From the NCBI GenBank assembly GCA_903894565.1, contig CAITQP010000011.1, positions 70,515-134,514 of the forward strand: a DNA stretch of 64,000 bases, read 5' to 3'. Below the pieces are notes generated by a model. It was not told the origin of the DNA, searched no databases, and worked only from the letters and a program-made list of their open reading frames with translations. The stretch comes from an uncultured bacterium. Its GTDB lineage: Bacteria > Patescibacteriota > Minisyncoccia > Phycocordibacterales > UBA9973. Below are positions 2,155 through 14,115 of the stretch, one piece after another. Position 1 is the first letter of the stretch. Each line of letters starts with the position of its first letter. The position numbers and the translations under genes were made by a program.

Positions 2155-3585
2155 ATGGAAAAACACTACTATCCGACCATTGGTCTTGAAATTCACGCCG
2201 AACTTCGCACGAACTCAAAAATGTTCTGTGGTTGTAAAAACGACCCTGACGAGACCAAGCCAAACGTGAATATTTGTCCGATTTGTATGGCGCATCCGGG
2301 AGCAATTCCCGTGCCAAACAAACGCGCGATTGAGCAAGTCATCCGCGTTGGTCTTTCAATTGATGGAACAATTGCAGACTTCACCGAATTTGATCGCAAA
2401 AATTATTTTTATCCAGACATTCCAAAAGGCTATCAAATTTCTCAATACAAATATCCGATTGTCTCTGGCGGAAGTCTGGCTGACATGAAAGTAACTCGTA
2501 TTCACCTTGAGGAAGATACTGCGACGAGTAAACATGACCGAGGCGACTTTTCATTGATTGATTTCAATCGTGGGGGTGTGCCACTCATGGAGCTCGTAAC
2601 TGACGCTCAAACATTCGACGATATCGAAACTGCTGCAAAAACTGGCGGAGATTTTGGTCGCGAATACCAACTTCTTTTGCAGTATCTTGGTGCTTCGTAC
2701 GCCAACATGGAAAAAGGTGAGATGCGTGTAGAAGCAAACATTTCAATTTCGCCTGACCAAAAAGTCTGGGGCACAAAAGTTGAAGTAAAAAATCTTAACT
2801 CATTCAAGAGTGTCGAGCGTGCTATCCGCTACGAACTCAATCGCATGCGTGATTTGTACGAAGAAGGACGACAAGGGGAGATCGTTCAAGAAACACGTGG
2901 TTGGGATGAAATGAAGGGCAGCACATTTAGTCAGCGCGCAAAAGAATCCGCAGCTGATTATCGATATTTTCCGGATCCAGATATTCCAAAATTAAAATTG
3001 ACGGAGCTTTTTGACATGGATGCGCTCAAGATCGCACTTCCCGAGCTTCCTGTGGCAAAACGTGCGCGATATAAGAAAGATTACGGAATCAAGGATGAGG
3101 ATATCGAACGATACGTGAATGATTTTGAACTCGCTGTTTGGTTTGAGGAAGTGATCAAAGCATTGAATGATTCTGAGAAAATAAAAGTTGCATCAAACTA
3201 TACGACATCTGACTTGCTTGGAATTCTGAAAAATGATTCTGAGGCAAAAAAGCCATCACCGAAAAATTTTGCGGAGCTTGTCGCTCTCGTGACTGAAGGC
3301 AAAGTATCTTCACGTGCAGCAAAAGATATTCTTGCAATGATTGTAAAAGTTGACGGCTCGCCGAATGCGCTCGCCGAACAGCATGGTCTTATTCAGAAAA
3401 ACGATGAAGGTGCACTCAAAGCAATAGCTCAAAAAATCATCGAAGCAAATCCTAAAGTTGTCGCTGATTACAAATCTGGCAAGGAAGCTGCAATCATGAG
3501 CTTGGTTGGACAAATGATGAAAGAAACCAAAGGAAGCGCGAACCCCGCAATCGCATTAAAATTAATAAAAGAGCTTGTCGCGTAG
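2155..3585 (+). CDS. gatB: Asp-tRNA(Asn)/Glu-tRNA(Gln) amidotransferase subunit B
   Basis: MEKHYYPTIGLEIHAEL... N-terminus and full-length GatB/YqeY architecture. Start moved to the ATG at 2155, just after the mltG stop. Confidence 0.9.
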   Translation: MEKHYYPTIGLEIHAELRTNSKMFCGCKNDPDETKPNVNICPICMAHPGAIPVPNKRAIEQVIRVGLSIDGTIADFTEFDRKNYFYPDIPKGYQISQYKYPIVSGGSLADMKVTRIHLEEDTATSKHDRGDFSLIDFNRGGVPLMELVTDAQTFDDIETAAKTGGDFGREYQLLLQYLGASYANMEKGEMRVEANISISPDQKVWGTKVEVKNLNSFKSVERAIRYELNRMRDLYEEGRQGEIVQETRGWDEMKGSTFSQRAKESAADYRYFPDPDIPKLKLTELFDMDALKIALPELPVAKRARYKKDYGIKDEDIERYVNDFELAVWFEEVIKALNDSEKIKVASNYTTSDLLGILKNDSEAKKPSPKNFAELVALVTEGKVSSRAAKDILAMIVKVDGSPNALAEQHGLIQKNDEGALKAIAQKIIEANPKVVADYKSGKEAAIMSLVGQMMKETKGSANPAIALKLIKELVA

Positions 3586-3590
3586 CTAGA

Positions 3591-3687
3591 AAATGTACTC
3601 GGGAAAGGACTCGCGGAGCGCGACGGCGCGAGCGTGAGGCGAAAATCCTTCAGGATTTTACGCTGGTCCTTTCATGAGTACACTTTT
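3591..3687. repeat. structured palindromic repeat element, copy A (71-nt conserved core 3603-3673 inside an outer terminator-like hairpin)
   Basis: Core GAAAGGAC...GTCCTTTC is 67/71 identical to 7680-7750. Internal stems CTCGCG/CGCGAG and GCGAAAATCC-TTCA-GGATTTTaCGC. Outer stem TGTACTC/GAGTACA followed by a T-run. Confidence 0.7.
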
Positions 3688-3727
3688 CTTGCTACGCGCC
3701 ACGATCTTGTAGTATAGTGACAAAATT

Positions 3728-5213: not shown

Positions 5214-6587
5214 ATGAAACCAACCTCATCCAAAAAACTTTGGAAAATCGGCATGAAGGAATACAACACCCAGTATTTCGACTTCAATAAAGACGGTGAC
5301 CTTATTATCAAAGAGGGCCACAACATTTATAATGTTCGCTATCTTGCGGAGAAGATGGGTACTCCACTTCAGATTCTTATGCCGTTTGTTATTGAGGAGC
5401 GCCTCGAGGACTTTCTAGACTTGAACAAGGAACTTGCCAAGAAGATTGGTTATCACGGAAAGTTTTTTTATCATTACCCAATGAAGGTGAATCAGAACAA
5501 GGAGGTCATCATGGCCCTTGTTGGTGATGGTGCTCATCTTGAGACATCTTCGTACAACGACCTCTATCTCATCAAAAAGATGCTTGATGCGGAAACATTC
5601 AATCCAAATATCCGTATTCTTTGTAATGGACCAAAGACAGACAAATATCTCAACCTTATCGATGAACTTCAGCACAAGGGCACAAAAGTCTTTCCGCTTA
5701 TTGAAGGACCGAACGAACTCAAAGTGCTTCAGCACTCACGTTACGATGTAGGTATTCGTCTTGCCATGAAAGTGAAGGTGAATTCTCGTTGGAACAAGCC
5801 AATCGATCGTTTTGGATTTCCTGCAGAAGAAATTCTTGCTATGGACAAGTTTAAGAACTTGAAAATTTTGCACTACCATATCGGTGGACAGATCGAGACG
5901 ATCAATGACATGCTTCCTCCGATCAAGTATGCATTGAATGTGTACTTTAAATTGAAGGAAAAGAATCCATCGCTCGACACACTTGATATTGGAGGTGGAA
6001 TGCCGATTCCGTTTACTCGCACCAAGACTTACTCCATTGAGAAGCTCATGGAAAAAATCTTTGAACTTTTGAAGAGCGAAGCTGACAAACGTGGCGTCCC
6101 TCACCCAAACCTTATTTGTGAGTGGGGAAGTTACATGGTGTATCCAGCTCAGATCACAATTTACAAAGTGAGTGATACAAAGAAAATCAACGACAAGAAA
6201 GCTGAGGGAAAGAAATGGTATGTCATTGACGGAAGCTTCATGAACGATCTGTGTGATACATGGGCGATTGGTCAAAAATGGGCAATGGCACCAGCTAATA
6301 ACAAGAACGACAAGAACTTGAATGAAGTCTGGCTTGCTGGTTCTACTTGTGATTCTGACGATACGTACAAAGGCATAAATGGCTCGGTAACGTTACCTGA
6401 CTATGATTTTGATACGCAGGATCCAATGTACATTGTGATATTCGATACAGGAGGCTACCAAGCATCACTCTCTATGAAGCACTGCCTATTGTCTGCTCCA
6501 CTTAAGATTATTGCCGAGAATGGACACATCGTCGTCGCTCGCAAACGTGAAAGTCCAGAGGACGTTGGTCAAAAGTTCGGTTGGTAA
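5214..6587 (+). CDS. PLP-dependent Orn/Arg/DAP decarboxylase family 2 enzyme, likely arginine decarboxylase by context
   Basis: PLP-lysine motif YPMKVNQNKEVIMALVGDG and LDIGGGMP motif. Followed by DHS-like gene, with agmatinase convergent downstream. Confidence 0.7.
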   Translation: MKPTSSKKLWKIGMKEYNTQYFDFNKDGDLIIKEGHNIYNVRYLAEKMGTPLQILMPFVIEERLEDFLDLNKELAKKIGYHGKFFYHYPMKVNQNKEVIMALVGDGAHLETSSYNDLYLIKKMLDAETFNPNIRILCNGPKTDKYLNLIDELQHKGTKVFPLIEGPNELKVLQHSRYDVGIRLAMKVKVNSRWNKPIDRFGFPAEEILAMDKFKNLKILHYHIGGQIETINDMLPPIKYALNVYFKLKEKNPSLDTLDIGGGMPIPFTRTKTYSIEKLMEKIFELLKSEADKRGVPHPNLICEWGSYMVYPAQITIYKVSDTKKINDKKAEGKKWYVIDGSFMNDLCDTWAIGQKWAMAPANNKNDKNLNEVWLAGSTCDSDDTYKGINGSVTLPDYDFDTQDPMYIVIFDTGGYQASLSMKHCLLSAPLKIIAENGHIVVARKRESPEDVGQKFGW

Positions 6588-6612
6588 ATTATTATTTGAT
6601 ATACTTATTCTC

Positions 6613-7632
6613 ATGAACAACAATCTTCCAACATTCGAATTTATTCTAAAGAATTACAAGAACTTCAACGCACGAGCACTTCGTGACGCAACTCTCGCGT
6701 ACTGGGATCACACCCAAAAAGGTGGAAAGATGTTCTGGGCTGTCGCCGGAGCTATGAGTTCTGCTCAGCTCGGTATCGTGCTTGCTCCTGCCATTCGAGC
6801 AGGTCTCATTTCGGGCATGTCTGTCACGGGCGCAAACCTTGAGGAATCATTGTTCCGTTTGGTAGCGCATGATCACTACAAGGATTTTCCAGATTATCGT
6901 TATTTCACGAAAGAAGACGATACCAAGATTCTTGAGAATCGCATGCGTCGCGTGACGGACACTTCGATTCCTGAGGACGAAGCGTTCCGCGTGGTTGAAA
7001 AACAAATCGTGCCTACGTGGAAGAAGGCTACAGAAGACAAGACTCGTCGTTTCTGGCACGAATATTTTTACGAACTTATTCAGCAAGTTGATCCAAAAGA
7101 CTATCAAGGTGACGTGAATGAGTGCTGGTTGCTCGCAGCAGCGCAAGCGAATATTCCAATCGTTGTTCCAGGATACGAAGACTCAACATTTGGAAATATT
7201 TTCGCAGGTCATGTGTATCATAATGATTGCACCGCATCAATCGTCAAAAGTGGCGTTGAATACATGGCTGCGTTTTATGAGCAGTACCAGAAGATGTCTG
7301 AAGGTGCAGGTGTCGGATTCTTCCAGATTGGAGGAGGTATCGCCGGAGATTTTCCAATTTGTGTTGTTCCTTCCCTTAAGTATGACGTTGAAGTCAAAGA
7401 GGTGAAGCCATGGGCATACTTCTGTCAGATTTCAGACTCGACTACTTCATACGGATCATATTCGGGTGCTACTCCAAACGAGAAAATCACTTGGGACAAG
7501 CTCACCAAAGACACTCCGATGTTTGTCGTTGAATCAGACGCGACTATCGTCGCTCCACTTATGCTCACTGCGCTTCTCGAAGCAAAAGCAAACCCTGACG
7601 CAGCAAATGCTTTAATCAAACAGTACGCGTAG
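6613..7632 (+). CDS. deoxyhypusine synthase-like protein
   Basis: QIGGGIAGDF and SYSGATPNEKITWDKL resemble the DHS NAD-binding and active-site-lysine region. Start trimmed to ATG 6613 (MNNNLPTFEF). Confidence 0.65.
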   Translation: MNNNLPTFEFILKNYKNFNARALRDATLAYWDHTQKGGKMFWAVAGAMSSAQLGIVLAPAIRAGLISGMSVTGANLEESLFRLVAHDHYKDFPDYRYFTKEDDTKILENRMRRVTDTSIPEDEAFRVVEKQIVPTWKKATEDKTRRFWHEYFYELIQQVDPKDYQGDVNECWLLAAAQANIPIVVPGYEDSTFGNIFAGHVYHNDCTASIVKSGVEYMAAFYEQYQKMSEGAGVGFFQIGGGIAGDFPICVVPSLKYDVEVKEVKPWAYFCQISDSTTSYGSYSGATPNEKITWDKLTKDTPMFVVESDATIVAPLMLTALLEAKANPDAANALIKQYA

Positions 7633-7660
7633 AGAAATAACCACAGAGGTACAGAAGCCG

Positions 7661-7770
7661 AAAAAAATAAAACACCCCCGAAAGGACTCGCGGAGCGCGA
7701 CGGCGCGAGCGTGAGGCGAAATTTCTTCAGAAATTTACGCTGGTCCTTTCGGGGGTGTTTTATTTTTTTC
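7661..7770. repeat. structured palindromic repeat element, copy B (core 7680-7750) inside a bidirectional terminator hairpin
   Basis: Outer stem AAAACACCCCC/GGGGGTGTTTT with A-tract and T-tract flanks. The core differs from copy A by two compensatory base pairs (AAATTTC-TTCA-GAAATTT). Confidence 0.7.
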
Positions 7771-7781
7771 GGCCACCGTAA

Positions 7782-8684
7782 TTATTTGAGCTTCTTTTTT
7801 GCTTCGAGGAGACGCTTCTTGTAGAACGTGTTGATCATGTTGTATACAATCTGTGCTGCTCCATATTCGGTAAGTACGTTATCGGAGACAGGGGAGACTT
7901 CGACGACATCGGCACCGACGAGTGTCTTTTTCTCGATGACTTTCTCGAGGAGCTTCAATGTATACCACCATTCGAGGCCACCTTGCACTGGTGTACCAGT
8001 ACCAGGCATATATGCTGGGTCAATACCATCAACGTCAATTGAGATATATACCTTTTTTGTGTTGATAGCGGAGACAACTTTGGCAATACTTGGAATTTTT
8101 TCACCATTCCATTCAAAAGTTTTGATATTTTTGAACGAAGAGAAATAATCTGATTCTTCCTTTGAATATGCGCGAATACCAACTTGTACAAGATTGAATC
8201 CGATTTCGTGTGCTCGACGCATGACAGCTGAGTGAGCATACTCAGTTGGGTCAGTATCATTGTAGTCACTATCGTCCTTGCGGAGATCACAGTGAGCATC
8301 AATTTGGAAAATCGTAATATCTTTTGGATTCTCTTTCTTCGCAAGCGCTTTGAGCGCACCAAAACTCATGGAATGTTCGCCACCGAGGAGGAGAGTGAGG
8401 GGCGCGACACTCTCAGAACACATTTTGACGACAGCTGCATGCGCTTCGTCTGGAGCCATCTTTGCAAGGCCTGGGATCTCTGTGTGAGCGATTTTGATGT
8501 AGTCAGTCGACTCGATACCATATCGCTTGTCCCAGAATTCGATCTGAGTATTCAAACATTCAACAACTTTTTTTGGACCGAGGGCGGTACCTTTGTGAAA
8601 TGATGCAGTCGCATCATACGGAGCACTGATAATATGCGCGTCAGCGACCTTCGGGTCTTTTGTATTAATGATTGATTGTGGCAT
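7782..8684 (-). CDS. speB: agmatinase / arginase-family ureohydrolase
   Basis: GGEHS, DAHCDL, SIDVDGIDPAYMPGTGTPVQGGL manganese-binding motifs. Confidence 0.8.
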   Translation of the reverse strand: MPQSIINTKDPKVADAHIISAPYDATASFHKGTALGPKKVVECLNTQIEFWDKRYGIESTDYIKIAHTEIPGLAKMAPDEAHAAVVKMCSESVAPLTLLLGGEHSMSFGALKALAKKENPKDITIFQIDAHCDLRKDDSDYNDTDPTEYAHSAVMRRAHEIGFNLVQVGIRAYSKEESDYFSSFKNIKTFEWNGEKIPSIAKVVSAINTKKVYISIDVDGIDPAYMPGTGTPVQGGLEWWYTLKLLEKVIEKKTLVGADVVEVSPVSDNVLTEYGAAQIVYNMINTFYKKRLLEAKKKLK

Positions 8685-8760
8685 GGGTGCATAATACCAC
8701 GAGAAAATGAAGAGAAAAAGATATTCACTTTCCGAAATCGGTTGACTTTGTGGTACAATA

Positions 8761-9621
8761 TTGGTGATGAAAATAAATTACGCGCAACGAATCTCGGTTT
8801 GGTATATGACCGGAATGATTATTTTTTGGTTTTTCCTTCTTGCAACTCACCGAACATTTGGTAATTTGAATTATTTCTTTTCGTTTTTAATGGGACTGCT
8901 TCCTTTTTTTGGTGGTATCGTGGCAATGATGCGTGCGCGCGATTGGACGAGCATGAAAGGGTATGTGAGTCGAGGTGTATTCTTCCTCGGACTCGGTCTT
9001 TTCTGCTGGGGTTGTGGTGAATTGATTTGGTCTTACTATAATTTCTTTACCGGCGTGTCTGCTCCTTACCCATCATTCGCGGACCTTGGCTTTGCTCCAA
9101 GTGTATTTTTCTATTGTATCGGTGCTGTATATCTTGCACGTGCTGCAGGTGCTGACCTTGGACTTCGACGACGCTTTGCAACGCTATTCATGGTTGTCGT
9201 TCCAGTCATCATGTTCTTTTTTTCGTACTATTTCTTGGTTACGGTTGCTCGTCAGGGTGTTTTGCTTTCAAGCTCTGATTCGCCACTCAAGAATTTCTTT
9301 GATATTGCATATCCAATCGGTGACTTTATCAGTTTGACAGCGGCTGTTGTGATCTCTGGACTTTCTTTCCGCTTCATCATGAGCGAGTATCGCATTGCCA
9401 TCTTCTCAATATTGTCTGGTCTCGCGGTAATGTTCGTTGCGGACTCTATTTTTTCGTACACCACAAGTCTCGCGACATATTTCAACGGCGACCTTGGTGA
9501 CATCATTTTCACCATCGCACTTTTCCTCCTGACATTTGGTGTTCTTGGTTTTTGTGGAGAGACGGATGAGTCTGCTTTAAATGAAAAACCAACGTTCTTC
9601 CGTTCGCTCTGGCACGTATAA
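8761..9621 (+). CDS. polytopic membrane protein, paralog A of 11486-12343
   Basis: Multiple TM helices. Shared blocks SAPYPSFADLGFAPSVFFYCIGAVYLA and FDIAYPIGDF with paralog B. Confidence 0.55.
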   Translation: MVMKINYAQRISVWYMTGMIIFWFFLLATHRTFGNLNYFFSFLMGLLPFFGGIVAMMRARDWTSMKGYVSRGVFFLGLGLFCWGCGELIWSYYNFFTGVSAPYPSFADLGFAPSVFFYCIGAVYLARAAGADLGLRRRFATLFMVVVPVIMFFFSYYFLVTVARQGVLLSSSDSPLKNFFDIAYPIGDFISLTAAVVISGLSFRFIMSEYRIAIFSILSGLAVMFVADSIFSYTTSLATYFNGDLGDIIFTIALFLLTFGVLGFCGETDESALNEKPTFFRSLWHV

Positions 9622-9636
9622 TACTATTTATCACTT

Positions 9637-10551
9637 ATGAACTGGTTTCTTCTAGCCCTACTCGCTCCGCTCGCATGGAGCGTAGCAAACTATCTCGACA
9701 AATTTCTCCTTTCGAATTCGAAAGGAGAGGGTGAGGGAGGTAGTGGGGGACTTCTAATACTTTCTTCTCTTGTGAGTTTGGTTGCAGCCGGATGTATTTT
9801 TTTGAAGCAAGGAGCACTCGGCATTACACTTGATTCGCAGTCGGTCGGAGTGCTCATTCTTTCGGGAATGTTTGAAGCACTCTATATCCTGTTTTATTTC
9901 TGGGCACTTGAAGCTGAATCAACAGCAACAGTAATATCGCTCTTTCAATTCGCCCCGATCATGGGGCTTTTGTTTGGGTATCTTATGCTCAACGAATCGC
10001 CAACAGGAATGCAATTCCTCGCAGTCTTGGTGATTCTTGTCGGTACCTTGCTTATCATCAAAAAGAAAGGGGAGAGATTGTCGTTTAATGGACATGTTTT
10101 GCTCATGATGATCGTTGCGACAACATTCGTCGGGATTTACAACACGTTGTTTAAAATTGTCGGTGAACATATACCGTTTTGGTCTGCGATGTTCTGGCAA
10201 TACCTTGGTATCGGCATGGTTGGTTTCTTACTTTTCTTTGGAGTCGCGCCATATCGCAAGCAGGCAATAGACATGATCACAAAAAAGAGCTTGAATTCGC
10301 TTGGATTGACCGGCCTTGCTGAAGTAATGAATATCGTGGCTCTCATGGCCACGAACGCGGCAATCCTGCTTGCGCCTGTGGCGCTCGTGCTTTCGATTAG
10401 CTCGATTCAGCCTGTCTTCGTCCTGATTGAGGCTTATATTATAACGGCCTTTTTCCCGAAGTTTTTAGACCCTTGCGATAAACCGGTATTCATGTTACAA
10501 TATGCATTAGGTATCCTCCTCGTCTGTGTTGGGGGATTTCTCATCTATTAA
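9637..10551 (+). CDS. EamA/DMT-family transporter (10 TM)
   Basis: Two-repeat 5+5 TM hydrophobic architecture typical of DMT/EamA. Confidence 0.65.
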   Translation: MNWFLLALLAPLAWSVANYLDKFLLSNSKGEGEGGSGGLLILSSLVSLVAAGCIFLKQGALGITLDSQSVGVLILSGMFEALYILFYFWALEAESTATVISLFQFAPIMGLLFGYLMLNESPTGMQFLAVLVILVGTLLIIKKKGERLSFNGHVLLMMIVATTFVGIYNTLFKIVGEHIPFWSAMFWQYLGIGMVGFLLFFGVAPYRKQAIDMITKKSLNSLGLTGLAEVMNIVALMATNAAILLAPVALVLSISSIQPVFVLIEAYIITAFFPKFLDPCDKPVFMLQYALGILLVCVGGFLIY

Positions 10552-10563
10552 TCAAAAAAGCGT

Positions 10564-11466
10564 ATGATTCCACTATTTCCAGAATTTAAAAAGCTCGAAT
10601 TGTCCGACAAGGACGAAATCGAGAGCTTTACGCGCCAATTTCCACCGTACTCTGACTTTAACTTCGTAAGTATGTGGAGTTGGGATATAAAATCTGAAAC
10701 ATCAGTTTCTCAATGTGAAGGAAACTTAATAGTTCGATTCACCGATTACTTATCAAAAGAGCCTTTTTACTCATTTATCGGAGTGAATAATATTTATAAA
10801 ACCATTGATTCGGTTACTGAGTATTCATTAAAAAATGGGTCTGGATCAAAACTTAAATTTATACCAAACGAGGTAGTTTCGATGATTAGTGATTCAAACT
10901 ACCTTGTTATTCCTGATCCAGATAACTTTGATTACGTATATAACATGCAAGAATTTCACGCTGGATTGGGAAAAAAATATGAAACTCAGCGCAATCAAAT
11001 TAACCGATTTCTAAAAAAACACCCCGGAGTTAAGACAGAGGTTTTCTTCGATTTTAGTGAAATTAAGGAAAAAATATTACGCTTGGAACAAAAATGGAAA
11101 TTAAATAAGATTATCGATGAAAAAGTCATTGAATTTCAAAGCGAATCAGCAGCTTTGTGGCGAATTTTCGACTTACAAGGCGAAAGTTTTGTTACAGTAG
11201 GTCTTTTTGATGGCGATGAATTAATTGGTTTCTGCGTATCAGAGCTCCTCGACAAAGAATATGCGATTGCCCATTTTGCAAAAGCTGACGTGAATTATTC
11301 TGGAGTATATTCGTACCTACTATACTCAACTTGTGACGCTCTGATTAAAAAAGGGAAAATATATTTGAACTACGAACAAGACTTAGGTTTAATGCACTTA
11401 CGTAATTCTAAAACTTCATTTCGTCCGGCCTATTACTTAAAGAAGAATATTGTTGTAAAACAGTGA
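10564..11466 (+). CDS. DUF2156-family protein (aminoacyl-phosphatidylglycerol synthase C-terminal-like, tRNA-dependent aminoacyltransferase fold)
   Basis: Family-typical blocks DYVYN...GKKYETQRNQINRF and NYEQDLGLMHLRNSKTSFRP. About 35% GC, lower than its surroundings. Confidence 0.65.
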   Translation: MIPLFPEFKKLELSDKDEIESFTRQFPPYSDFNFVSMWSWDIKSETSVSQCEGNLIVRFTDYLSKEPFYSFIGVNNIYKTIDSVTEYSLKNGSGSKLKFIPNEVVSMISDSNYLVIPDPDNFDYVYNMQEFHAGLGKKYETQRNQINRFLKKHPGVKTEVFFDFSEIKEKILRLEQKWKLNKIIDEKVIEFQSESAALWRIFDLQGESFVTVGLFDGDELIGFCVSELLDKEYAIAHFAKADVNYSGVYSYLLYSTCDALIKKGKIYLNYEQDLGLMHLRNSKTSFRPAYYLKKNIVVKQ

Positions 11467-11485
11467 ATAACTGATTTGCAAGAGG

Positions 11486-12343
11486 ATGAATCTATATTAC
11501 AATAGATTCATGAAAGAATCATCAACACCGTTTCAAAAATTATTGACGAACCATTTTGTGTTGCTTGCATCACTATTTTTTTGGGGAATGAGCGTATGGT
11601 GGGTTACCATAATTCTCCATGGTTATAGAGGCACGAATGATAACAATTTATTCACGGTTATTTACCCAATTTTATCACTTGCTGGTGGTATTACTGGACT
11701 CATCTATGCAGAACGATGGGGTGGTTTCAAGAGTCTTATAGGAAAAGCACTCAAATTTCTTAGTTTTGGACTTCTTGCTCAATTTTTCGGGCAGGCTGCG
11801 TACACATATTATATTTATTTAAAGGGAGTTGCTGTTCCGTACCCTTCGATTGGTGATATCGGGTACTTTGGAAGCGTTGTGTTTTATTTCCTTGGTGCTC
11901 TTTATCTTGCAAAAGTTTGCGGTTTTGGAAGATCGACTCGATCACTGAGCAGTAAACTTTTAGCGCTTGTAGTACCGATTCTCCTCCTTGCTTGTTCCTA
12001 CTTCTTCTTCTTGAGAGGTTATGATTTTAGTTCAATCAACTATCTGAAAACATTTTTGGATTTTGGATACCCAATTGGCCAAGCAATATATGTTTCAGTG
12101 GGAATTATCGCATTGTTGCTTTCAAGTACAGCAATGGGTGGTATAATGAAGAAGCCAATATTATTTTTAATATTTGCACTTATATTCCAGTACATATCAG
12201 ACTTCGTGTTTCTTTATCAGGCAAATAATGGGAGTTGGTATGTTGGTGGTTTAAACGACTACTTATACCTAGCATCATATTTTTTGATGACAATCGCTCT
12301 TGTTAACATTGGTGGCGTGTTTCGTACTATTAACGAAGCATAA
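11486..12343 (+). CDS. polytopic membrane protein, paralog B
   Basis: VAVPYPSIGDIGYFGSVVFYFLGALYLA, LDFGYPIGQAI. Low GC. Confidence 0.55.
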   Translation: MNLYYNRFMKESSTPFQKLLTNHFVLLASLFFWGMSVWWVTIILHGYRGTNDNNLFTVIYPILSLAGGITGLIYAERWGGFKSLIGKALKFLSFGLLAQFFGQAAYTYYIYLKGVAVPYPSIGDIGYFGSVVFYFLGALYLAKVCGFGRSTRSLSSKLLALVVPILLLACSYFFFLRGYDFSSINYLKTFLDFGYPIGQAIYVSVGIIALLLSSTAMGGIMKKPILFLIFALIFQYISDFVFLYQANNGSWYVGGLNDYLYLASYFLMTIALVNIGGVFRTINEA

Positions 12344-12350
12344 ATAAATT

Positions 12351-12644
12351 ATGGATACAGCAATAGACGTCTTCAACCAAATATCTATCCGTATCATCAA
12401 GGAGCAGGAGGCTATCATTGGGCCACTTGCCTGGAGTGAGGCGGCGAAGGTTCCAGGGCTCACAATCATCGACCCGAAGGCCCACACCGTGAGTGTTACA
12501 GGGGAACCGAAAGAGGTCATCAACAGTCTCGTTTCTCGCTACGAACAACTCTTTGGACGTCTCTCACGTGAAGTCAGTCGAGAAGCAGTCGTCGACCTCA
12601 CCGCAGATATCCCATCAGAAGATATTCCTACGAGTCTCAAATAA
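12351..12644 (+). CDS. small hypothetical protein (97 aa)
   Basis: ORF tightly spaced between membrane paralog B and the histidine kinase. Coding-like composition. Confidence 0.4.
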   Translation: MDTAIDVFNQISIRIIKEQEAIIGPLAWSEAAKVPGLTIIDPKAHTVSVTGEPKEVINSLVSRYEQLFGRLSREVSREAVVDLTADIPSEDIPTSLK

Positions 12645-12677
12645 CATTAGTATCAATAATTTTAAACCAAGTCACTA

Positions 12678-14066
12678 ATGTCACTTTTTTCCTGGCACAA
12701 AAAACAACCAGACGCATCTCCCGCAAAGGACTCACTTACTCCGAGCGACGTAAACGAAATACTGTACAAGCGAAATGCCGAACTTGCTATCAAAAACAAG
12801 GCGCTTTCGCTTCTTGGTAATTTGTACGAGACAAGTATTTTGACGCTTACACCAGCAGATCTCGCGCGCAAAATTTCAGATTCAGTTCGTGAGGCACTCA
12901 ACTACGAATCGGTTTCCATGTTTCAGTACGATAAGGAGAACGACGCTCTTGATCAGATTGGATATTCTCGCTCCGATCGTTACGACGAACAGCTTCGCTT
13001 GTCTGGAGTGAAGATTGATTACACGTCAATCGACAAAGCATCGACTCGTGAATTTTTTGATGGCGTCATGAACAAGCGCCAGCCAGTTTTGAATGAAAAA
13101 TTTGGCTTCATCCACAAAAACGGTGTACTGTCAGAAGAAGAAATTAAAATGTTGGCTGATCGAGCACACATCAAATCTTCGATTGTATATCCACTTGCAC
13201 TTGGTGAGCATGTGCTTGGAATGTTGCTCATTAGTATGAATCGCGAATACGAATCACTCCCTGATTACGAAAAGGGGATTATCGGAAGTATCGTGAACGT
13301 GGTCTCCCTCGCGCTCGACAAGTCTCTTACGTATGAGGCACTTCAGGATGCGAACGAGAAGCTGAAGAGTGTGGACAAGCTCAAGACAGAATTCTTGTCG
13401 CTCGCGGCTCATCAGCTCCGTAGTCCGCTTACAGCCATTCGTGGATATACATCGATGCTTCTCGACGGATCATTTGGAACTGTTGATACAAAGCAAAAGG
13501 AGGCGATTAATCGTGTGTTTGAATCAAGTAGCCACCTTACAAAGATCGTTGAAGATTTGTTGAACGTTTCCAAGATTGAAGCTGGGGGGATGAAGTACGA
13601 AATGGCTCCGTTTGATCTCGAAAAAGCAGTGCATGATTTGACGACAGACCTCTCTATCACAGCGGAAAAGAAAGGATTGAAACTTTCGTTTGCAACTGAT
13701 AGCAAAGGCCCATATACTGTCAACGGAGACATGGAAAAAATTCGTCAGGTTGTACTCAATGTCATCGACAATGCGATCAAATATACAATGCAAGGCTCCA
13801 TCTCAGTTTTGCTTGCACGCAATGAGGCAACCAAGATGATTCGCATCGCAGTTACAGATACCGGAATGGGAATTTCAGCTGAAGAAAAAGAAAAACTTTT
13901 CCAGAAATTTAGTCGCGGAGAAGGAGGAAAGACGAACACAAGTGGCTCAGGTCTCGGTCTCTATCTTGCGAAACAAATCGCCGAAGCTCACGGTGGGGAA
14001 GTTGTTATTGATTCGCCAGGCGCGGGCAAAGGTTCAACATTCACCATCGAACTCAAAGCGATGTAA
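12678..14066 (+). CDS. cytoplasmic sensor histidine kinase with GAF-like domain
   Basis: HisKA H-box LSLAAHQLRSPLTAIRGY. HATPase G-boxes DTGMGI and GSGLGLYLAK. No TM and no adjacent response regulator. Confidence 0.85.
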   Translation: MSLFSWHKKQPDASPAKDSLTPSDVNEILYKRNAELAIKNKALSLLGNLYETSILTLTPADLARKISDSVREALNYESVSMFQYDKENDALDQIGYSRSDRYDEQLRLSGVKIDYTSIDKASTREFFDGVMNKRQPVLNEKFGFIHKNGVLSEEEIKMLADRAHIKSSIVYPLALGEHVLGMLLISMNREYESLPDYEKGIIGSIVNVVSLALDKSLTYEALQDANEKLKSVDKLKTEFLSLAAHQLRSPLTAIRGYTSMLLDGSFGTVDTKQKEAINRVFESSSHLTKIVEDLLNVSKIEAGGMKYEMAPFDLEKAVHDLTTDLSITAEKKGLKLSFATDSKGPYTVNGDMEKIRQVVLNVIDNAIKYTMQGSISVLLARNEATKMIRIAVTDTGMGISAEEKEKLFQKFSRGEGGKTNTSGSGLGLYLAKQIAEAHGGEVVIDSPGAGKGSTFTIELKAM

Positions 14067-14070
14067 TAAA

Positions 14071-14115
14071 AGACAACAAAAAACACAGAGGTAACTCTGT
14101 GTTTTTTGTTGTCTT
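14071..14115. terminator. bidirectional intrinsic terminator (perfect 20-bp-arm palindrome)
   Basis: AGACAACAAAAAACACAGAG-gtaac-CTCTGTGTTTTTTGTTGTCT, between the convergent histidine-kinase and cysS genes. Confidence 0.7.

Follow-up and report, generated by a model that had tools for sequence, protein, structure and literature searches.

The stretch of DNA analysed here, referred to below as the window, comprises 64,000 nucleotides (nt) from an uncultured bacterium (Patescibacteriota; UBA9973; contig CAITQP010000011.1, positions 70,515-134,514), and all coordinates are given in the numbering of the window. Between positions 8761 and 14066 of its plus strand, an amino-acid-attaching enzyme of the DUF2156 type and an EamA-family transporter are joined to a membrane sensor kinase that is encoded in three pieces. 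We read this arrangement as a make-export-sense circuit for an aminoacylated compound, tentatively and at a probability of about 0.45. The parts are of known kinds; what is new is their combination, the distribution of the kinase over three genes, the interchangeable ligases found in the position of the enzyme, and the allelic module formed by enzyme and sensor.

A check of open reading frames (ORFs) and translations found six ORFs on the plus strand, at the same positions as in a preliminary description of this DNA. They encode, in order, a membrane protein denoted memA (8761-9621, 286 residues), an EamA/DMT-family transporter (9637-10551), a freestanding DUF2156 protein (10564-11466), a second membrane protein, memB (11486-12343; start possibly at 11510), a protein of 97 residues, s97 (12351-12644), and a soluble GAF-HisKA-HATPase_c histidine kinase (12678-14066). 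The intergenic gaps are 15, 12, 19, 7 and 33 nt. Because the gaps are short and a bidirectional, intrinsic-terminator-like hairpin (14071-14114; 20-bp stem, -32 kcal/mol) stands between the kinase gene and the convergent gene for cysteinyl-tRNA synthetase (CysRS), the six genes are predicted to form a single operon.

The gene order EamA-DUF2156-memB-s97-kinase is conserved across many lineages of the candidate phyla radiation (CPR). A scan of one genome per species recovered 329 DUF2156 relatives, from which 80 loci were analysed; 59 of these had enough flanking sequence to be judged. A histidine kinase lies within 3.5 kb of the DUF2156 gene in 56 of the 59, so that the conservation of the neighbourhood, put forward as a check in the preliminary description, is borne out. 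memB adjoins the DUF2156 gene in 39 of the 59 loci and EamA does so, on either side, in 38, while s97 is present, following memB, in 36; the order given above is the commonest. When metagenomes were sampled from the memB side, the DUF2156 gene was directly adjacent in 47 of 54 loci. Response regulators are mostly absent from these neighbourhoods, a CheY-like or receiver-domain gene being found directly after the kinase in L029, L051, L079 and L173-175 (loci of relatives are designated by L numbers and single proteins by P numbers). We found no paper that describes the cassette or that links CPR bacteria with DUF2156.

There is also a second architecture, DUF2156-EamA-X-kinase, in which the kinase has a membrane domain of its own with 8-9 transmembrane helices. 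This domain is unrelated to memB (hhalign probability 2%), and the idea that memB is the detached 7TM domain of such long cassette-linked kinases was dropped on the same value. Gene X (for example L017 11910-12338) encodes a conserved protein of 123-153 residues that is anchored in the membrane at its N-terminus and carries a cysteine-rich domain (YEGxCDP...CEDDxCT...CSITYCD); it has no Pfam match, its stop overlaps the kinase start, and it was also seen in L020, L022, L026, L033, L039, L062-L064 and L067-L069.

Comparison with natural gene fusions indicates that memB, s97 and the GAF kinase (11486-14066) together make up a single sensor kinase, split over three genes, whose membrane input of eight transmembrane helices is memB, because a single protein, P0291 (796 residues), is collinear with all three in the same order: memB at residues 7-263, s97 at 268-358 (E=1e-25) and the GAF kinase at 352-778 (E=1e-53). 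Shorter chains of 378-386 residues join memB to s97 in P0146, P0192, P0219 and P0239 (s97 matches E=2e-23 and 4e-28). The preliminary description had raised the possibility that the membrane proteins act as sensor partners of the soluble kinase, and the fusions in P0146, P0192 and P0291 back this strongly. s97, a predicted cytoplasmic adaptor between memB and the kinase, is 95-99% identical among sister genomes that differ in memB. At some loci the kinase that follows memB-s97 has only about 282 residues and lacks a sensor domain of its own. In the window, the kinase has HisKA (64 bits) and HATPase_c (93 bits) domains by Pfam, and the H-box AHQLRSPL is present in its translation. Its sole in-cis input is a weak GAF domain, which at 20.7 bits falls just below the Pfam cut-off of 22.4, but NCBI calls the 98%-identical orthologue a GAF kinase, and the homologous P0291 passes the cut-off.

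The two membrane proteins are true paralogues, as had been proposed from their shared motifs: memA and memB are 29% identical over 249 residues (E=2e-32, BLASTP), and memA, which has seven hydrophobic segments, scores 265 bits against a hidden Markov model of the memB family. No Pfam or NCBIfam model matched memA, memB or s97. The memB family is large, with 656 close homologues and 3190 members in an exhaustive profile search. An AlphaFold (AF2) model of memB (pLDDT 89.5, pTM 0.88) is an eight-helix bundle for which a Foldseek search of the PDB returned no significant solved relative and no MprF, the best matches being generic 7TM bundles at E of at least 0.015. By the positive-inside rule both termini are placed in the cytoplasm, and two invariant motifs, PYPSxGD and DFGYP, at the outer face; the cytoplasmic C-terminus therefore fits the C-terminal fusions of the family. 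A conserved WGGxKS loop is located on the cytoplasmic side. In addition to the kinase, memB-type domains are fused to NB-ARC/STAND NTPases, a TrmB-type helix-turn-helix (HTH) domain and a MazG-like domain.

It had been suggested in the preliminary description that these paralogues are the flippase half of a split MprF, which would move an aminoacylated lipid made by the DUF2156 protein. Such a role would fit the adjacency of memB to the DUF2156 gene, the exchange of the two genes together (see below) and the dependence of the MprF synthase on its membrane domain for positioning. However, there is no PF03706 match and no MprF in the Foldseek results, memB has eight transmembrane helices against 14 in the MprF flippase domain, it is translationally coupled to s97 and the kinase, and its family is fused to histidine kinase, STAND, HTH and MazG outputs. 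As neither a PF03706 match nor an MprF-like structure was found, and the family is joined to signalling outputs, memA and memB are assigned to a new family of sensor modules with eight transmembrane helices and not to the MprF-type flippases; the flippase explanation, already disfavoured, is very unlikely. Membership of the Lipocone superfamily was considered as well and set aside, as the Lipocone preprint does not treat this family.

In its general plan the split kinase resembles the HisKA_7TM (PF16927)-type kinases, where a polytopic membrane input feeds a HisKA-HATPase_c core; the second CPR architecture contains a fused kinase of this kind. memB differs from that input in that it is not detectably homologous to it, has no Pfam model and is a separate gene acting with a separate adaptor. 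Likewise, the HisKA and HATPase_c domains make the window kinase a conventional two-component enzyme, but its membrane input is in trans and no receiver-domain ORF was found in the 64 kb, in agreement with the earlier remark that it has no response regulator nearby.

Two further forms of the memB family were observed. NB-ARC/STAND NTPases with a C-terminal memB-type domain occur in L173 (2496-4526) and L088 (1857-4202) and as P0269, P0288 and P0242; the one in L088 fills the kinase position after DUF2156-memB-s97, the one in L173 lies just upstream of the cassette, and these proteins have only marginal similarity to Avs/mad8 models. In L089 (1084-3504) a TrmB-type HTH domain is fused to two tandem memB domains (806 residues), beside a HisKA_7TM kinase and a receiver gene. 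This protein appears to be the family's version of a one-component regulator tethered to the membrane.

The enzyme of the operon (10564-11466) is a protein of 300 residues with no transmembrane segment and no aminoacyl-tRNA synthetase or membrane domain. It matches PF09924 (LPG_synthase_C) with E=7e-21 and 75 bits (cut-off 27.5) over profile positions 7-294 of 298, which together with the fold search upholds its previous assignment as a standalone DUF2156 protein; the motifs quoted for it are present in the translation. An AF2 model built on 47 homologues (pLDDT 92) has 2HQY as its best Foldseek match (TM-score 0.84, E=8e-22), followed at greater distance by the MprF synthase domains of several species (5vrv, 4v35, 6lv0, 4v36, 7duw; 0.60-0.65, E~1e-11) and FemX (0.58, E~2e-9); the small-molecule tRNA-dependent ligases Sbb17 and Sba18 (9wqw, 9wqx, 9wqy) match with E values of 3e-8 to 2e-7, Sbb17 at 3e-8. 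When the sequence profile was searched against the PDB, 2HQY was the sole match (E=2.4e-37), with no MprF chain at E≤1. The model shows the tandem-GNAT fold of aminoacyl-tRNA transferases, with a predicted α(+) helix between the lobes (residues 137-152, KKYETQRNQINRFLKK, encoded at 10972-11019). Across the 47 sequences, R143 of this helix is invariant, K151 is K or R in 83%, R148 is conserved in 68% and K138 in 60%, and the mean net charge is +4.3. The α(+) helix of characterised DUF2156 enzymes binds the tRNA acceptor arm, and the substrate specificity of these enzymes is not readable from sequence (PMC8913301, PMC7334510).

Since 2HQY is the best match in both the fold and the profile searches, and MprF and FemX are more distant, the protein is best placed in a freestanding DUF2156 subfamily distinct from the aminoacyl-phosphatidylglycerol synthase (aaPGS) enzymes. 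The search found 880 homologues, with source names from CPR lineages; the top 120 of these are 220-332 residues long, nearly all about 300, and PF09924 is their sole domain. The likeness to MprF and aaPGS consists in the tandem-GNAT fold, the basic inter-lobe helix and the PF09924 match above threshold; in contrast to them, the window enzyme stands alone at 300 residues, with no fused flippase and with membrane neighbours that are not MprF-like, and sits in a kinase operon. As it lacks the PF03706 flippase domain, one of the features that define MprF, it is not to be filed as a split MprF. 2HQY, a 'conserved protein of unknown function' from Bacteroides thetaiotaomicron, is a freestanding DUF2156 protein of the same length and architecture but only about 23% identical. 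The fungal ergosteryl-glycine synthase ErgS is likewise freestanding, with a basic α(+) helix, and takes aminoacyl-tRNA from a separate synthetase (PMC8913301); it and ErdS differ in being eukaryotic, in their sterol acceptor and in having no transporter or kinase partners. VlmA (valanimycin; PMC2922099), Sbb17 and Sba18 are MprF/Fem-like GNAT enzymes that pass an amino acid from aminoacyl-tRNA to a soluble acceptor. These belong to antibiotic clusters, whereas the window has a transporter and a sensor kinase and no biosynthetic cluster. When isolated, the synthase domain of MprF has no effective activity on lipids in vivo, the membrane domain of MprF being needed to position the synthase (PMC8131360).

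The chemistry of the enzyme's position is further illuminated by six loci (L148, L149, L158 and L173-175) in which a protein of 427-433 residues stands exactly between EamA and memB-s97-kinase; L173 comes from CP066685.1, a complete genome of the Levyibacteriota. Searches of Pfam and the PDB with the L149 sequence by itself gave no match, and only a profile and the members of its family showed the relationship to ATP-grasp proteins. The family (117 members) has pre-ATP-grasp and ATP-grasp domains, with PF18604 in 18 of 30 and PF02655, PF02222 or PF14397 in others. Against the PDB its profile matches 8YND (1.4e-11), 8yi6 and 3wvq, the matched proteins being an ATP-grasp peptide ligase (8YND), the BesA-type L-propargylglycine-L-glutamate ligase and PGM1. 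tRNA-dependent GNAT enzymes and ATP-grasp ligases are known alternatives for attaching an amino acid, for example in the peptidoglycan cross-bridge, and the MprF-like VlmA acts on a small molecule (PMC2922099). As two such alternatives occupy the same slot, the role of the slot appears to be to join an amino acid to some acceptor, irrespective of how the amino acid is activated.

That the same two enzyme types serve as cross-bridge alternatives (PMC2922099) raises the question of a peptidoglycan role, in which the DUF2156 protein or the ATP-grasp ligase would add an amino acid to an amine of lipid II or of the UDP-MurNAc-peptide and the kinase would monitor the wall. FemX is a structural relative (TM-score 0.58), and an Asp/Glu racemase gene lies near the L173 cassette. 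However, the enzyme is closer to 2HQY and MprF than to FemX, mur and fem genes are missing from the cassette, L175 lacks the racemase, and an EamA exporter would not be expected. A wall function is thus hardly probable.

The DUF2156 and memB genes are poor in G+C, at 0.342 and 0.367 compared with 0.41-0.50 in neighbouring genes, which agrees with the preliminary description; at third codon positions the values are 0.32 in the low-GC block and 0.38-0.55 in the neighbours. This is a family-wide trait and not evidence of recent acquisition by the window genome. The DUF2156 gene is below its own locus in 97% of 71 loci, by 6.5 points on average, and memB in 90% of 50 loci, whereas s97 and the kinase gene are not depleted.

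The low-GC block does coincide with a module that has been swapped by recombination (10686-12347), consisting of the DUF2156 gene from about codon 41 and all of memB. Over more than 19 kb the window and the syntenic locus L015 share about 85% DNA identity, but similarity is lost between window positions 10686 and 12342. A sliding alignment puts the drop, from about 86% to about 50% identity, near 10690 (about codon 40 of the DUF2156 gene) and the recovery, to 96%, near 12348, 3 bases before the start of s97. At the protein level, EamA, s97 and the kinase are 97%, 99% and 98% identical between the two, in contrast to 41% for the DUF2156 protein and 40-41% for memB. In L090 there is a third allele, whose left breakpoint is the same and whose DUF2156 protein is 41% identical to that of the window and 46% to that of L015. 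Several alleles also occur in the GROS21 groundwater metagenomes. The more distant, syntenic L082 has the allele class of the window at the same site, with identities of 67% and 75% that are in line with the 73-74% of CysRS. Because L082 shares this allele class, the window allele was probably inherited vertically, with the replacements having happened in L015 and L090. Of the proposal that low GC reflects acquisition, the coincidence with a recombination-swapped module therefore stands; recent acquisition by the window genome was rejected in view of the matching L082 allele and the family-wide depletion.

Enzyme and sensor were also replaced independently in the pairs L002/L032, with near-identical boundaries, and L029/L107. 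Thus, in three independent lineages, the DUF2156 gene and memB have been exchanged together between sister genomes in which EamA, s97 and the kinase stay near-identical. The pair L011/L120 shows the reverse pattern, with the module 94-97% identical and s97 and the kinase only 85-89%. Over pairwise identities, memB correlates with the DUF2156 protein at 0.40, as against 0.06-0.17 with EamA, s97 and the kinase. The paired replacement suggests that product and sensor specificity are matched, since joint replacement of enzyme and sensor would keep product and receptor fitted to each other.

Co-replacement would equally fit a co-adapted protein-protein interface. In that case memB would be a membrane dock for the DUF2156 protein, and the kinase would read enzyme occupancy or the supply of aminoacyl-tRNA, as a sensor of nutrient or translation status. 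The conserved cytoplasmic WGGxKS loop and the MprF precedent, in which a membrane domain positions the synthase, are consistent with docking. Set against this, most of the invariant residues of memB are at the outer face, and neither EamA nor the substitution by an ATP-grasp enzyme, which would use free amino acid and ATP and not aminoacyl-tRNA, is explained. We regard a dock as improbable.

The deep divergence of alleles that occupy one fixed locus, observed in three lineages, and the low GC throughout the family may also recall systems of conflict or surface variation, where a hypervariable enzyme-membrane pair arises from an arms race between phage and host, for example through receptor modification or abortive infection. 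The fusion of memB to NB-ARC/STAND NTPases, the STAND protein in the kinase slot of L088, and the restriction-modification and TIR genes beside the L085 cassette are in keeping with this. Yet the cassette is very widespread and not island-like, occupying a stable syntenic position among housekeeping genes, and PADLOC and PHROGs gave no match for memA, EamA, the DUF2156 protein, memB or s97, so that a conflict system is highly unlikely. Membership of a known defence system was rejected on the same searches, in which the matches of the sixth protein, the kinase, were to generic ATPase domains. As a separate observation, L085 (3828-10648) has a type I/IIG restriction-modification pair and a ThsB-TIR-like gene directly downstream of DUF2156-(memB+s97 fusion)-kinase, a context that appears defence-island-like on that one contig.

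Returning to the make-export-sense circuit, its operation may be envisaged as follows. The cytoplasmic DUF2156 enzyme would take an amino acid from aminoacyl-tRNA and attach it to an acceptor. The EamA protein would then carry the product into or across the membrane, either out of the cytoplasm or to the outer leaflet. The conserved outward-facing pocket of memB would detect the product, or a state that the product creates, and memB would signal through s97 to the kinase, which would phosphorylate a response regulator encoded elsewhere. If any gene of the operon translocates the product, EamA is a better candidate than memA or memB. The protein matches PF00892 in two repeats (E=1.6e-14, Pfam) and has nine hydrophobic segments at the threshold used, the family expectation being two repeats with about ten transmembrane helices; it may act as an exporter or as a flippase.

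The genes upstream of the operon may bear on the nature of the acceptor. They encode a pyridoxal-phosphate (PLP)-type arginine decarboxylase (ArgDC; 5214-6587, plus strand), a DHS/SpeY-like protein (about 6620-7632, plus strand) and an agmatinase-like ureohydrolase (7782-8684, minus strand), with families assigned from orthologues in L001, L082 and L090 (Pfam Orn_Arg_deC_N, DS and Arginase, respectively). When the DHS/SpeY-like ORF is taken at its longest, from a TTG at 6511, it runs over the last 77 nt of the decarboxylase gene (6511-6587); its orthologues are called at 340 residues, and the start is therefore placed near 6610-6620. Such a trio constitutes an agmatine-dependent homospermidine pathway (PMC13625781). 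In L173-175 a pyruvoyl-dependent arginine decarboxylase overlaps the start of EamA. Of the loci surveyed, 10 of 76 from genomes and 8 of 45 from metagenomes have an ArgDC of either fold or an agmatinase within 2.5 kb of the cassette, and the arrangements vary. By chance, an estimated 2% or so would be expected, if a genome is about 0.8 Mb in size and holds about three target genes and the flank searched is about 4.5 kb. This association of polyamine genes with the cassette is suggestive, not general.

A soluble amine, such as agmatine or a polyamine, is slightly favoured over a membrane lipid as the acceptor, because an ATP-grasp ligase can substitute for the DUF2156 protein, because arginine decarboxylases of two unrelated folds recur, because the isolated MprF synthase domain is ineffective on lipids, and also because members of the EamA family typically carry small metabolites. 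A lipid acceptor would lead to a different function, the remodelling of envelope charge: the DUF2156 protein would aminoacylate a scavenged lipid (phosphatidylglycerol or diacylglycerol) and EamA would flip it outward, as an MprF in two parts, with the kinase sensing an external stress in place of the product and regulating the response. The characterised PF09924 enzymes except VlmA act on lipids, the MprF synthase domains are clear structural relatives, and the operon has a membrane context. In addition, ArnE/F, which are small members of the DMT superfamily, act as flippases for a cationic lipid-linked sugar, and the mprF gene of staphylococci is under the control of GraRS/ApsRS. What such remodelling does not account for is the joint replacement of enzyme and sensor, for which it gives no reason, or the adjacency of arginine decarboxylase genes, which it does not predict; moreover, a homologue of ATP-grasp amino-acid/peptide ligases replaces the DUF2156 protein in the same slot, and the isolated synthase domain is poor on lipids in vivo without a membrane anchor. 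We consider envelope remodelling rather unlikely.

Several observations weigh against the make-export-sense circuit itself. The well-characterised PF09924 enzymes other than VlmA modify lipids (PMC8913301, PMC7334510), and the nearest solved relative, 2HQY, is a protein of unknown function. The second architecture uses an unrelated 7TM kinase and the cysteine-rich protein X in place of memB and s97. The fused kinase P0291 (L087) has no DUF2156 or EamA gene within 6 kb, which rules out an obligate coupling of DUF2156 and memB, and the window encodes no response regulator. Polyamine genes adjoin only 13-18% of loci. With regard to matched specificities, the pair L078/L074 shares memB at 81% but the DUF2156 protein at only 43%, and the correlation of pairwise identities between the DUF2156 protein and memB (0.40) is lower than that of the DUF2156 protein with EamA or s97 (0.46-0.49). 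The co-replacement could also come about by hitch-hiking, the two genes being adjacent and flanked by conserved recombination anchors.

A more specific form of the circuit would be a tRNA-dependent self-signalling (pherotype) system, in which DUF2156 alleles load different amino acids on an amine of the agmatine or polyamine type, EamA secretes the conjugate and the matching memB detects it. The comQXP locus of B. subtilis and the agrBDCA locus of S. aureus are polymorphic quorum-sensing loci whose variable segment comprises the signal-making enzyme and the polytopic input of the kinase. The cassette resembles them in that its polymorphism is confined to the enzyme and the membrane input, with a conserved kinase core. 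It differs in having no gene for a ribosomal precursor peptide (the 19-nt gap between the DUF2156 gene and memB contains no ORF), in the lack of an adjacent response regulator in the window and in an enzyme that is tRNA-dependent by homology. We regard this possibility as quite doubtful. If it is true, sister strains with different DUF2156/memB alleles would be separate communication or kin-recognition groups, and the ATP-grasp ligase would make an equivalent signal in some lineages.

The first gene of the operon, memA, was found in only some relatives (L014, L015, L030, L055, L082, L090 and L095). An extended -10-like element (TGGTACAAT, 8751-8759) ends 2 nt upstream of the TTG at 8761; the start is therefore likelier at ATG 8767 or 8815, and gene callers pick 8815. 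In L082 a second DUF2156 gene (6122-7030, minus strand; 302 residues, 40% identical to that of the window) lies between the agmatinase and memA homologues and is divergently transcribed from memA. It is absent from the window, where only 76 nt separate agmatinase and memA, and the memA of the window looks like the orphaned remnant of a second pair of enzyme and sensor.

Elsewhere in the window, two intergenic hairpins (3575-3700 and 7636-7781; -68 and -79 kcal/mol) share a near-identical GC-rich core of about 70 nt (GAAAGGACTCGCGGAGCGCGACGGCGCGAGCGTGAGGCGAAA...TTTACGCTGGTCCTTTC) with different outer stems. Both are at gene 3' ends and are kept in L015 and L090, and they may represent a repeated structured element or a terminator family. 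A regulatory RNA or a dedicated tRNA was also considered and rejected, as Rfam gave only far-below-threshold miRNA models on a hairpin and ARAGORN found no tRNA gene in the 64 kb.

The CPR/Patescibacteria make up a large share of bacterial diversity and are mostly uncultured episymbionts with tiny genomes, about whose sensing and signalling almost nothing is known. The cassette is present in hundreds of CPR species, and its retention in reduced genomes implies an important function. That genomes which are otherwise nearly the same have repeatedly had their enzyme and sensor replaced points to selection that is strong and either diversifying or frequency-dependent, as is seen in systems of pherotype, kin recognition and surface variation. 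Should the product be a secreted aminoacyl conjugate, charged tRNA would be the source of a new class of bacterial signal; should it be a lipid, the cassette would reveal how bacteria that scavenge lipids modify and monitor the membranes they borrow.

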